Source: an uncultured Pseudomonadales bacterium
GTDB lineage: Bacteria; Pseudomonadota; Gammaproteobacteria; Pseudomonadales; Porticoccaceae
DNA: 64,000 nt
Assembly: GCA_943788875.1 (NCBI GenBank)
Contig: CALSSA010000012.1
Location: forward strand, 18,855 to 82,854
Direction: 5' to 3'
Shown: piece after piece, positions 35,349 to 38,818 of the stretch
Position numbering within the stretch: position 1 is the stretch's first letter
How the letters are laid out: each line of letters begins with the position of its first letter
Made by a program: the position numbers and the translations under genes
The notes under the pieces: model-generated
The model's input: only the letters and a program-made list of their open reading frames with translations
Told to the model about the DNA's origin: nothing
The model's database searches: none

Positions 35349-35993
35349 ATGGCAAATCGACAACTCTCAGGTCTTGACCGAATTTTAACCCAGCTGGATC
35401 AGGGCTTGCGCACTGTTCTGGGCAATGCTCCTGCGCCACAGCGAGCCTCACCGGCCGTTGAGCTCACTGAGTCGGAGCTATCTGATCAGGAGCGCCAGCA
35501 TGCTCTAGGGCTAATGCGAGTAAATCACGCAGGGGAAGTCTGCGCTCAGGCTCTGTATCAGGGCCAGGCACTGACTGCCAAGCTGCCCGAAGTGGGTGAG
35601 CAAATGGAGCATGCTGCCGCAGAAGAAATTGACCATCTGGCCTGGTGTGAACAGCGTATCCATGAGTTGGGCGGGCGCACCAGTGCACTAAATCCACTGT
35701 GGTATGCCATGTCTTTTGGCATTGGGGCCGGGGCCGGTTTTATTAGCGATAAACTCAGTCTCGGCTTTGTGGCTGCGACTGAAGATCAGGTCTGTGATCA
35801 TTTGCAGCAACATCTCGAGGAATTGCCGGCCAATGATCAAAAAAGCCGCGCTATTGTTGAGCAGATGCTCGAAGATGAAGCGCGACACGCCCAATCCGCG
35901 CTGGATGCAGGAGGCCATCAGTTTCCTGCACCTATCAAAAAACTGATGACCTTGGTTTCCTCTGCCATGACCGGCAGTAGTTATCGACTGTAG
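35349..35993 (+). CDS. coq7: Demethoxyubiquinone hydroxylase (di-iron Coq7 type)
   Basis: [40 protein letters not shown]. Confidence 0.95.
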
Positions 35994-36980
35994 TTACCTT
36001 TGTTTGGCAACGCTGCCGCTCTCGGCCTCAAGCGTTTTCTCCCAATCATGAATCAAGCCAACAATCTTATCTGACAACCAGCGGTGAATGCCGGAGCCGG
36101 ATGTGCGCTTGTGTTGCAGTAACACCAATGAGATCGTACCTTTGTGAGGCAGGTCTGCTGGATAGGGCTTGCGCACAATACGATACATTTCACGTTCCAT
36201 AGTGAGACCATGTTTGGCGGCCACCATCAGACAGTCCGTACCACAGACAGTTTCTACTGCAGTCATCAACTGATTAGTCACCAGAGCTTTTTTGCGCTTG
36301 CGGCCCATATCTCGAAGAACTCGATCAAATCGTGCATCGGTGCGCGCACTGACGCGCTTGGCAATCAGCAGGTAATATTGCACAAAGGGATATTCCAGAA
36401 TTTCATCCAAGGTGACGCGACTTTTTTCAGCAAGGGGATGGTCTTCTCTCATCCAGATAGACGGCGTAAAGTTAGCCAGGCTTCTGATGCTAATGTCTTC
36501 TGTCATGGTTTTTTCAATATCAATAGCAAAGTCCAGTACGCCTTCTGCCAGCTCACCCTCTACTGATGAATCAGTCTCACTGGAAATTGACAACACCACA
36601 CCAGGCGCATGCTCAGTGACCACTTTGGATAATTGAGAGATCAGAGAAATGGCTACAAACTCAGGGACAGCAATACTAATCTCACCCACATAGGTAGCCG
36701 GATCAAACTCCCCCTCACTAACCATTTCCAAAATGCTATCCAACAATCTGGGCAACCGGGCCTGTAACTCCCGTGCTTTGGGGGTTGGTACAAGTTCATT
36801 GCCTGTGCGGGTAAATAATGGGTCATCGAGCTGATGTCTAAGCCGCTGCAATACGCGACTCATGGCGGGCTGAGTGATAAATAATCGTCCGGCTGCACGA
36901 GTCACGCTTTTCTCTTCAAGCAGGGCCTGCAGCGAAACCAGTAAATTGAGATCGAGTCGCGAAAGTTTCTGTAAATTCAT
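35994..36980 (-). CDS. LysR-type regulator, NodD/MexT/LeuO-like subgroup
   Basis: RLDLNLLVSLQALLEEKSVTRAA..LFITQPAMSRVLQRLR..LDDPLFTR helix-turn-helix; start at MNLQK. Confidence 0.92.
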   Translation of the reverse strand: MNLQKLSRLDLNLLVSLQALLEEKSVTRAAGRLFITQPAMSRVLQRLRHQLDDPLFTRTGNELVPTPKARELQARLPRLLDSILEMVSEGEFDPATYVGEISIAVPEFVAISLISQLSKVVTEHAPGVVLSISSETDSSVEGELAEGVLDFAIDIEKTMTEDISIRSLANFTPSIWMREDHPLAEKSRVTLDEILEYPFVQYYLLIAKRVSARTDARFDRVLRDMGRKRKKALVTNQLMTAVETVCGTDCLMVAAKHGLTMEREMYRIVRKPYPADLPHKGTISLVLLQHKRTSGSGIHRWLSDKIVGLIHDWEKTLEAESGSVAKQR

Positions 36981-36993
36981 TAAATTAAGCTCC

Positions 36994-37033
36994 ATTACCA
37001 AAACGCATATTATTAATGCAAACAATGCATTTG
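36994..37033. promoter_or_regulatory. LysR operator copy 1 (two T-N11-A sites 7 bp apart, nod-box-like)
   Basis: ATTACCAAAACGCAT-N7-ATGCAAACAATGCAT-TTG, between the LysR start and a divergent sORF; repeated at 37371-37410. Confidence 0.75.
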
Positions 37034-37059
37034 GATTATGTCATAGGAATCTCTATATT
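37031..37059 (+). promoter_or_regulatory. sigma70-like promoter of unit 1
   Basis: TTGGAT-N17-TATATT with the -35 abutting the operator. Confidence 0.55.
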
Positions 37060-37105
37060 GTCACCCATAGAGCAGTGGCTCTTAAATTTAACTAAGGAGA
37101 TAGAC

Positions 37106-37216
37106 ATGACACTCGTATATTTAATGATAGGTTTTACTGGCCTCGCGGGTGCTGCAATTGCGAAAGATAGTTTCGCCAAGTTGGAAGCACCAGGACTCGA
37201 GGCTTCTGAGAAGTAA
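37106..37216 (+). CDS. 36-aa small hydrophobic protein MTLVYLMIGFTGLAGAAIAKDSFAKLEAPGLEASEK
   Basis: Strong SD TAAGGAG 6 nt before ATG 37106; downstream of a promoter and upstream of a terminator; N-terminal hydrophobic helix. Confidence 0.65.
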   Translation: MTLVYLMIGFTGLAGAAIAKDSFAKLEAPGLEASEK

Positions 37217-37311
37217 AACTCGACAGCAACACTGAGTTTTTATTTACAGATTTACCAAATTCGTAGTTTTAAAGTATTACCCCTCTTAATCCTTGCTATA
37301 GGATTTTTTAC

Positions 37312-37339
37312 CGGGACCTGCCAAGGTCCCGTTTTTTTT
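37312..37339 (+). terminator. Rho-independent terminator 1
   Basis: CGGGACC-TGCCAA-GGTCCCG followed by T8. Confidence 0.9.
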
Positions 37340-37370
37340 GCCTGACCATTTTTAACGGTTAGTTTTGCAT

Positions 37371-37436
37371 ATTACCTAAACGCATGACTAGGATGCAAAT
37401 AATGCATTTGATTTATAGGCAGCAGATTTCTAATAT
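37371..37436 (+). promoter_or_regulatory. LysR operator copy 2 plus sigma70-like promoter
   Basis: ATTACCTAAACGCAT-N7-ATGCAAATAATGCAT-TTG (31/40 identical to copy 1); TTGATT-N17-TAATAT in the same register (+377). Confidence 0.72.
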
Positions 37437-37442
37437 GCTCCT

Positions 37443-37568
37443 ATTGAAAGAGAGACAGCAGTTTTAGAGAGGTGGCTAACAGCGGCTTCTCACATGTTTT
37501 ACCCCTAACCCCTCTTTGTATTCCATTCAAAGAATTTTTTCAGGAGCCTGCCAAGGCTCCTTTTTTTT
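37443..37568 (+). ncRNA. Candidate ~125-nt small RNA (unit 2)
   Basis: Bounded by promoter copy 2 and a plus-strand-only terminator; no credible ORF; 5' hairpin GAGAGG/CTTCTC and C-rich single-stranded core; 5' end estimated. Confidence 0.6.
37542..37568 (+). terminator. Rho-independent terminator 2
   Basis: AGGAGCC-TGCCAA-GGCTCCT followed by a T run; same loop as terminator 1. Confidence 0.9.
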
Positions 37569-37577
37569 GCCTAAAAT

Positions 37578-38003
37578 TTAGATACCAGCGGCCTCAATTA
37601 CATAACTATGACTCATTTCAACACCAGCAGCTTCAAGCATTATAGAGGCGGAGCAATATTTTTCGGCTGACAGCTCAACGGCACGCTTAACCTGCGCTTC
37701 TTTAAGATTAACGCCAGTAACGGTAAACTTCAGATGTATCTTGCTAAACACTGCAGGTACCGCGTCGACTCGCTCTGCTTCGACCTCAGCCCTGCAATCA
37801 GTGACCTGCTGGCGGCCCTTTTGCAGCATGCTCATCACATCGAAGGAAGCGCAGCCACCAAGTCCTACTAAAATCATTTCCATTGGGCGCACGCCCATAT
37901 TCCTACCGCCCTGCTCCGGCGCTCCGTCCATAACCACTGAATGGCCACTGCCGGATTCACCTAAAAACATCACACCGTCTACCCATTTTACTGTTGCCTG
38001 CAT
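37578..38003 (-). CDS. yhfA: OsmC/YhfA family protein
   Basis: GVRPMEMILVGLGGCASFDV, SAEKYCSAS; divergent from crp as in enterics and Pseudomonas. Confidence 0.9.
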   Translation of the reverse strand: MQATVKWVDGVMFLGESGSGHSVVMDGAPEQGGRNMGVRPMEMILVGLGGCASFDVMSMLQKGRQQVTDCRAEVEAERVDAVPAVFSKIHLKFTVTGVNLKEAQVKRAVELSAEKYCSASIMLEAAGVEMSHSYVIEAAGI

Positions 38004-38182
38004 GACTCACCTTTACCCTATATGGCTGATTTTTGAGGCCGCAAAGATTAGCACAGACCGTTGCTGAAATTTCGTGCGCGACCAAAATATTTTTACTACT
38101 ATTAGACACAGGGGTCGCAAATAACTGTTATATGTAGTGGTAACCACTCGCGGCTTATAAAAACCATATAAGGAGATACACA

Positions 38183-38818
38183 TTGGCGCCTGCACCTCTT
38201 ACCCCACATATAGACAATGTCGAAGAGTTCTTATCCCATTGCCACCGTCGTCGCTACCCCGCTAAAAGCACTATTATTTATGCCGGAGATCAGGGCGACA
38301 CCCTCTACTATATAATCAAAGGATCAGTGACTGTCGTTATTGAAGATGATAGCGATGGCAAAGAAATGATTCTCGCTTACCTTAATCCCGGAGACTTTGT
38401 CGGTGAAATGGGTCTTTTTGACCAGGAGCATCGCAGTGCCTGGATTCGTACTAAGACCGAATGTGAAGTCGGCGAAATCAGCTATGGTAAGTTTGTCGAA
38501 CTGGGCCATAAACACCCGGAATTCCTATTTGCCATCAGCAAGCAGATTGCCCAGCGCCTGCGAGATACTACTCGCAAGGTCAGTGACCTGGCCTTTCTTG
38601 ATGTGACTGGCCGTGTCGCTCGCACTTTGCTTGACCTGTGCAGAGAGCCAGATGCCATGACCCACCCAGATGGAATGCAAATTAAGATCACCCGTCAGGA
38701 AATTGGCCGTATTGTTGGCTGTTCAAGAGAAATGGTCGGCCGGGTACTCAAAGATCTGGAGGAGCGGGAACTAGTCTCTGTGGCTGGCAAGACCATGGTG
38801 GTGTTCGGCACCAGATAA
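38183..38818 (+). CDS. crp: cAMP receptor protein, Vfr/CRP type
   Basis: GEMGLF..RSA cNMP pocket, DTTRKV (Vfr-type TT), [25 protein letters not shown]; TTG start after AGGAG. Confidence 0.95.

Follow-up and report, generated by a model that had tools for sequence, protein, structure and literature searches.

In this study, we analysed a 40-bp element that is present twice in the window, by which we mean the whole 64,000-nucleotide stretch of DNA under investigation. The host belongs to the SAR92 / HTCC2207 genus within the Porticoccaceae. Judged from the sequence, it is likely that the element is the operator of the adjoining LysR-type transcriptional regulator (LTTR) and that in SAR92 bacteria it heads two sibling transcription units. 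The first of these is predicted to give rise to the mRNA of a small membrane peptide with a small RNA (sRNA) module at its 3' end and the second to a sibling sRNA. SAR92 is an abundant and ecologically important marine clade, some members of which are in culture, and its genomes are small and encode few regulators. The locus represents a defined and testable circuit, in which a regulator and a 40-bp operator with exactly two occurrences are combined with a micropeptide and two sibling RNAs.

Layout of the 40-bp element and its promoters

Read directly from the sequence, copy 1 of the element (positions 36994–37033, plus strand) is ATTACCAAAACGCAT-ATTATTA-ATGCAAACAATGCATTTG and copy 2 (37371–37410, plus strand) is ATTACCTAAACGCAT-GACTAGG-ATGCAAATAATGCATTTG. 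A preliminary description of this DNA had stated that the two 40-mers are identical at 31 of 40 positions with a fully diverged spacer, that each contains two 15-bp T-N11-A sites and that promoters follow in identical register. All of this was borne out: the copies agree at 31/40 positions and at 0/7 in the 7-bp spacer, the T-N11-A pattern is present in both halves of both copies, and TTGGAT-N17-TATATT and TTGATT-N17-TAATAT are found at the same offset from their respective 40-mers, each of which ends ahead of the -10 box with the 17-bp spacing and in the same register. When the region 36900–37650 was shuffled 200 times with its dinucleotides preserved, the best pair of 40-mers agreed at 23.3 positions on average and at no more than 27, compared with the 31 observed.

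In copy 1, the distal dyad ATTAC-N5-nGCAT (36994–37008) is centred at about -65, which is the usual RBS position of an LTTR; in other species its right half is GGTAT or GTAAT, which results in the dyad ATTAC-N5-GTAAT. The proximal dyad, ATGCA-N5-TGCAT followed by TTG (37016–37033), is a perfect 5+5 dyad that is centred at about -43 and overlaps the -35 box. Copy 2 is built in the same way, with a distal dyad at 37371–37385, the spacer at 37386–37392 and a proximal dyad at 37393–37407, which is again followed by TTG. The proximal dyad is nearly invariant among the 121 sites that were stacked, and the motif ATGCA-N5-TGCATTnG occurs 2 times in the whole genome.

The unit 1 promoter (37031–37059, plus strand) consists of the -35 box TTGGAT (37031–37036), a 17-bp spacer and the -10 box TATATT (37054–37059), which would place the transcription start at about 37066. 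In the same manner, the unit 2 promoter (37408–37436, plus strand) has the -35 box TTGATT (37408–37413), a 17-bp spacer and the -10 box TAATAT (37431–37436), with a start expected at about 37444. The TTG of the -35 box is conserved in register, as are the first two letters and the last letter of the -10 box (TAnnnT). On the minus strand and inside the unit 1 promoter, a promoter is predicted for lysR, GTGACA-18-(TGn)CATAAT (37035–37064), which matches at 10/12 positions and carries a TG extension; the predicted lysR transcription start falls within the proximal dyad of copy 1. The plus-strand sequences ATTATGnCA and TGTCAC are conserved at copy 1 only; read on the minus strand they are the two elements of this lysR promoter, TGnCATAAT being its extended -10 and GTGACA its -35. 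Interrupted T-N11-A dyads in both 15-mers of both copies, centres at about -65 and -43 from a start placed by the conserved -10 box (where LTTR operators have their sites near -65 and -35/-45), and an adjoining divergent LTTR gene whose predicted promoter overlaps the site together support the earlier proposal that the element is an LTTR-type operator. Readings of the element as a sigma-54 or a CRP site were rejected on inspection of spacing and consensus.

It was also observed that the AT at operator positions 44–45 (window 37414–37416) is almost invariant across species in copy 2 too, where there is no divergent lysR promoter to account for it. This AT may represent an additional, third point of contact for the LTTR, or it may belong to the promoter spacer.

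The LysR-type regulator and its neighbourhood

The lysR gene (35994–36980, minus strand) encodes a protein of 328 amino acids with the Pfam domains HTH_1 and LysR_substrate. It is divergent from unit 1 and its start codon lies 14 bp from operator copy 1. Its neighbours are coq7, which is convergent with lysR and abuts it, an OsmC/YhfA-like gene, a crp/vfr homologue, trpC and trpD. The coq7 and lysR reading frames meet at 35993/35994 with zero intergenic space, which leaves no room for terminators between them.

The solved structures nearest to the regulator are PA0477 (2esn) and DntR, and the nearest curated families, namely BsrA, LelA, YidZ, CitR and LeuO, all fell far below their cut-offs. 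The N-terminal 149 amino acids align with NodD1 at 36% identity, and a hand count over residues 9–68, which include LDLNLL and QPAMS, gives about 55%; the effector domain yielded no alignment with NodD1.

The two transcription units and their RNA modules

Unit 1 spans approximately 37066–37339. Its transcript is predicted to begin with a leader hairpin AGAGC-AGUG-GCUCU (37069–37082, plus strand); in other SAR92 species the arms AGAGC/GCUCU are replaced by GGGC/GCCC, a change that looks compensatory by eye, without a formal count. The hairpin is followed by a small ORF of 36 amino acids, MTLVYLMIGFTGLAGAAIAKDSFAKLEAPGLEASEK (37106–37216, plus strand), which is preceded by the Shine–Dalgarno (SD) sequence AAGGAG and is predicted to encode a single-pass membrane peptide. 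Among 43 distinct nucleotide versions of this ORF, the variable columns are distributed over the three codon positions as 14/8/27, the other two frames are closed and 13 residues of the peptide are invariant. By this signature in the sequence, the small ORF is a real gene. An alignment-based search placed the peptide in a family of 80 protein clusters, all of which are named hypothetical and none of which contains a Pfam domain. A stem-loop with 17-nt arms (76% complementary) at 37205–37250 spans the stop codon of the ORF and could mark a processing site or separate the coding part from the sRNA module.

The 3' end of unit 1, module A (37279–37339, plus strand), is composed of the seed ACCCCUCUU (37279–37287), the hairpin AAUCCU/AGGAUU (37288–37305), a U-tract and a terminator (37312–37331) with T8. 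The terminator stem covaries, with 6 pairs changed on both sides, a value that was reached in 0/500 shuffles. The exact pattern CCCCTCTTAATCCTN{5,6}AGGATT was found in 59 stretches among 185,579 species, all of them from SAR92/Porticoccaceae.

Unit 2 (37444–37568, plus strand) has no ORF and would be transcribed as a sibling sRNA of about 125 nt, consisting of 5' stem-loops, the single-stranded stretch UUUUACCCCUAACCCCUCUU (37497–37516), the hairpin UCUUUG/CAAAGA (37513–37533), a U-tract and a terminator (37542–37561) with a T-run. Its fold has a z-score of -3.2 against shuffles with the C-rich stretch unpaired, and exposure of the C-rich seed is a feature of the predicted folds of the downstream units. 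The small hairpins of the RNA modules are 98% paired, a value that for the module of unit 2, module B, was obtained from 25 sequences. A covariance model of module B (R2) recovered the RNA in 13 of the 20 genera sampled in the family. When positions 35500–38500 were compared with Rfam at permissive E-values, nothing reached the gathering score; the best match was NmsRb with 22 bits versus the 52 required. The terminators at 37312–37331 and 37542–37561 share their loop and part of the stem, CCTGCCAAGG. This common loop and the relics of the ORF end in unit 2, GGCTTCTGAGAAGT versus GGCTTCTCACATGT, show that unit 2 arose from a duplicate of unit 1. An origin of the units by duplication is also shown by another Porticoccaceae genus (G063), where the ORF is still present in decayed form in the second unit.

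The genome encodes Hfq. Target prediction in the bacterium's own genome, for which home-made gene calls were used and RNAduplex was run on positions -35 to +20, gave no better values for the real seeds than for shuffled or reversed ones. Reversed k-mers likewise matched ribosome-binding sites just as often as the real ones, which is explained by the likeness of the seed to an anti-SD sequence and by the SD sequences of this genome, which are AAGAGG- or AGGGGT-like. Throughout the genome, ribosome-binding sites often read AAGAGG, TAAGAGG or AGGGGT(A/T), and any C/U-rich seed will therefore find many apparent targets. Among the neighbours, strong pairing was seen to none of lysR, the small ORF, osmC, crp and coq7. 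Taken together, an anti-SD-like seed and G-rich ribosome-binding sites make translational repression by pairing at the ribosome-binding site the likeliest action, and, judged from their sequence, the probable pairing partners of the sRNAs are ribosome-binding sites rich in G on other mRNAs.

Occurrence of the operator in the genome

The genome searched is a 2.48-Mb assembly of 14 contigs with a G+C content of 49.5%. With the 31 fixed positions as query, matches were obtained at the two known sites only, even when up to 7 mismatches were allowed. A position weight matrix (PWM) built from 56 orthologous sites scored 71.7 and 60.3 at the two copies, and the next best sites in the genome scored 19.3 and 8.1. 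The preliminary description had regarded the element as a ready motif for finding a regulon. This expectation failed, as neither the consensus with mismatches nor the PWM, the pattern suggested in that description or the core dyad revealed anything credible beyond the two sites; a genome-wide scan with the suggested pattern returned the two sites and one extra match (0.3 expected by chance), which is located inside the 3' end of a gene.

Two candidates were rejected. The site at position 143155 of contig C8 sits in the 3' end of a gene and was discarded as a further operator. The second-best PWM match, ATTCCTAATAAGAAT-N7-ATGCTAAATATGAAT, is found outside the window on contig C1 at about 32901 with a score of 19, between a leuC-like gene and a divergent gene of 287 amino acids with a LysR-type HTH-like N terminus. 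It was dismissed as a member of the regulon, as it resembles the site of another LTTR upstream of leuC, and it is probably the operator of that other LTTR and lies outside the regulon considered here.

As the operator is present at two places only, the direct regulon would comprise the regulator itself, the sibling sRNA and the mRNA that encodes the micropeptide and carries the RNA tail. With the direct regulon limited to these, any wider response would be post-transcriptional.

Conservation in SAR92 and other Porticoccaceae

Orthologues of the regulator are present in 36/36 genomes of the genus with 69–96% identity, in three further genera with 60–75% and in a fourth with 47%, and always adjoin the units. 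Outside the family, a search of 24 genomes from the other families of the order (E <= 1e-40) gave one match, with 37% identity. We compared 63 distinct SAR92/Porticoccaceae loci, in nearly all of which two operator copies are present and in which every promoter-to-terminator unit is preceded by an operator in fixed register; the syntenic block is coq7-lysR-units-osmC-crp. Stacking of 63 proximal and 58 second copies resulted in the consensus GGTC-ATTAC-N5-nGCAT-N7-ATGCA-aacAA-TGCATTtG. The information content is high in both dyads, in the -35 TTG and in the -10 TAnnnT, whereas the copy 2 spacer, which is free to vary, carries little information.

The commonest architecture is that of the window, in which an operator-ORF-module A unit is followed by an operator-module B unit. 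In streamlined species with genomes of about 1.0–1.5 Mb, the arrangement is operator-A followed by operator-B: the ORF is lost, and LysR, both operators and both RNA modules are kept. Other loci have an operator-A unit followed by an operator-ORF-A unit, and a few have a single unit. At a locus from Porticoccaceae UBA4026 (L022 / L042), at least three operator-headed units can be seen, one with an sRNA only and two or more with an ORF, some of the sequence being hidden by stretches of N; expansion of the cassette past two copies is thus possible.

Within the host's own genus, where LysR identity is 69–96%, the operator PWM scores are 36–73. The corresponding values are about 75% and 50–57 in genus g39, and 64% and 56 in genus g43, whereas in genus g33 (60–63%) the proximal copy scores 39–44 and the second copy 17–32. 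In these three genera the LysR orthologue is found in the same coq7-lysR-units-osmC-crp block, with proximal operator scores of 39–57. In genus g28, with a LysR identity of 47%, the scores are below 12, yet a diverged and duplicated operator is visible by eye. In G063 (LysR identity 47%), the operator has changed in sequence (CATGAAATTAATACATTTTATTTATG), yet a copy of it remains in each of the two units (locus L118, 1690–2330); unit 1 encodes a 35-amino-acid homologue of the peptide, MIVNYVMIVIVALLGSLIAWDDLRPIDRKPQENDQ, and unit 2 holds the decayed copy of that ORF mentioned above. The locus captures an sRNA in the course of emerging from a duplicated micropeptide gene. The preliminary description had proposed that the likeness of the two copies points to selection rather than a recent copying event, and the comparison across genera agrees with this view: both copies persist throughout the genus and in other genera, of which there are at least four, despite divergence of the spacer and the flanks. 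As the duplicated operator is kept, and diverges together with LysR, across genera, we conclude that it is old, selected and tied to the regulator and the units.

Alternative explanations

The alternative that fares best, albeit an improbable one, is that a different regulator binds the element, for instance the Crp-family protein encoded close by or a factor unlinked to the locus, and that the adjacency of lysR is mere synteny. The crp gene is indeed only 0.8 kb away and part of the same conserved block. However, the geometry of the dyads is that of an LTTR site (T-N11-A, 15-7-15) rather than TGTGA-N6-TCACA, and the operator and the predicted lysR promoter overlap, an arrangement that is seen in autoregulated LTTRs. 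Furthermore, the operator diverges in step with LysR, and a nod-box-like operator is here combined with a NodD-like DNA-binding domain in the regulator.

Somewhat less probable still is a type I toxin–antitoxin-like pair, in which the hydrophobic peptide would be the toxin, the sibling RNA the antitoxin and LysR would set the trigger. Such an arrangement would be in keeping with a hydrophobic peptide of 36 amino acids and a single helix, a strong SD sequence and an adjoining small RNA gene. However, the peptide mRNA has no antisense partner in the sibling RNA, which shows only weak complementarity to its leader or ribosome-binding site (-12.9 kcal/mol), and each genome has a single copy of the locus, in a fixed syntenic position. 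In addition, the peptide is missing from many species in which the two RNAs and the regulator have been retained, which indicates that the RNAs have a role of their own.

The nod box is defined by the feature ATC-N9-GAT (PMC2794183) and its consensus has been given as ATCCA-N7-GATG-N6-ATCCAAACAATCGATTTTACCAATC (PMC2575884). We recovered real nod boxes on pSymA of S. meliloti, which have the same geometry as the consensus, and NodD1 was located via its nod box. With the nod box the element shares the arrangement of a 15-bp dyad, 7 bp and another 15-bp dyad just upstream of the -35 box, and the preliminary description, which had likened it to the layout of nod and MexT boxes, was correct with regard to the nod box. 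The resemblance it had noted to the nod-box core could also be substantiated, as the proximal dyad ATGCAAACAATGCAT and the nod-box sequence ATCCAAACAATCGAT are identical at 12/15 positions, and 12/15 is likewise the agreement with the nod-box proximal half ATCnAAACAATCGAT, in the consensus and in the real S. meliloti boxes alike. Like NodD, the regulator has a wHTH domain of the LDLNLL...QPAMS type. These likenesses might suggest that the element is a genuine nod box or MexT box and a member of the NodD or MexT operator families, which we consider very unlikely. [quoted passage not shown] Moreover, the alignment with NodD1 is confined to the N-terminal 149 amino acids (36%) and does not extend to the effector domain, the nearest curated families (BsrA, LelA, YidZ, CitR, LeuO) are far below cut-offs, and in this marine Porticoccaceae host the genes downstream are those for a micropeptide and sRNAs rather than nod or mexEF genes. 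The term 'nod-box-like' is nevertheless a fair label, probably through a shared type of DNA-binding domain.

Finally, that the second copy is a functionless, neutral remnant of a recent tandem duplication is hardly credible, for even though unit 2 is clearly derived from unit 1, as seen from the ORF-end relics and the common terminator loop, both copies are kept in register with the -35 and -10 boxes across the genus and other genera while flanks and spacer diverge, and both are present in streamlined genomes of 1.0–1.5 Mb.

Proposed mechanism and implications

Taking the element as the operator of the adjoining LysR, the general LTTR model suggests that a LysR tetramer would occupy both dyads, the distal one at about -65 and the proximal one at about -43, where it reaches the -35 box. 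Together with a co-inducer, LysR would then recruit RNA polymerase to a sigma-70 promoter with a weak -35 and a good -10 box. A counter-point is that, of the two dyads, the one next to the promoter is the better, although many LTTRs have their stronger site in the distal position. Nod boxes, however, resemble the element described here in this respect. The whole operator-promoter cassette appears to have been duplicated along with the transcription unit, so that one regulator would control two sibling transcripts. The sites of copy 1 overlap the face-to-face lysR promoter, and LysR would therefore be expected to repress its own gene as well. The unit 1 transcript would serve as mRNA for the 36-amino-acid membrane peptide, and its 3' end is predicted to act as a Hfq-type sRNA module, in which the C-rich, anti-SD-like seed ACCCCUCUU precedes the hairpin, the U-tract and the terminator. 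Unit 2 would be a decayed copy in which the RNA module alone has been retained.

We hold more tentatively, and rather doubt than believe, a wider interpretation in which the locus is a Porticoccaceae-wide, RNA-dedicated switch. According to this interpretation, the entire direct regulon of a NodD-like LTTR consists of itself and two anti-SD sibling sRNAs, which arose from a micropeptide mRNA, namely from its 3' UTR, when the whole operator-promoter-gene cassette was duplicated and the ORF then decayed. If this is the case, the retention of the locus in SAR92 genomes of 1.0–1.5 Mb would make it a principal route from one chemical signal to a broad translational response in abundant marine oligotrophs. 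The loci also record stages in the origin of sibling sRNAs, namely an intact duplicate, a decayed ORF and no ORF.

Comparison with known systems

An LTTR with neighbouring sibling sRNAs is a known kind of switch; the example presented here is undescribed, and its RNA and micropeptide families are in neither Rfam nor Pfam. In the OxyR-oxyS and GcvA-gcvB systems of Enterobacteria, an LTTR activates an sRNA gene that is divergent from its own gene. These systems have a single sRNA, whereas the operator-promoter cassette is duplicated here, and the box sequences and RNA families differ. Furthermore, OxyR and GcvA control many protein-coding genes, in contrast to the regulator studied here, for which no further sites are present in the genome.

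The MexT box of Pseudomonas aeruginosa is, like our element, an LTTR site with two sites per promoter, and is derived from the nod-box pattern. Compared with the nod box itself, the element differs in having two sites per genome only, a regulator with an unrelated effector domain and no nod genes. It can be seen as a natural variant of the nod-box design, with ATG/CAT in place of ATC/GAT, that is combined with a NodD-like DNA-binding domain, and should be useful for studying the recognition specificity of LTTRs.

By analogy of organization, the closest system is VtlR/LsrB with AbcR1/AbcR2 of the Rhizobiales, in which a LysR-type gene lies directly beside the tandem sibling sRNAs AbcR1 and AbcR2 and VtlR activates abcR2; the AbcR sRNAs use short C-rich single-stranded motifs, CUCCCA and GUUCCC (PMC5461406, PMC4211561). 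At the SAR92 locus, two homologous tandem sRNA genes are likewise found beside a lysR gene, with shared 3' modules and terminators that are conserved across the family. However, the RNAs show no homology to AbcR or any Rfam family and are unrelated in sequence, and the host is a gammaproteobacterium of the Porticoccaceae, a different phylum-level lineage. A further difference from the VtlR/AbcR system is that here the two siblings share one type of operator, placed in identical register, and that one of them is the 3' end of a micropeptide mRNA.
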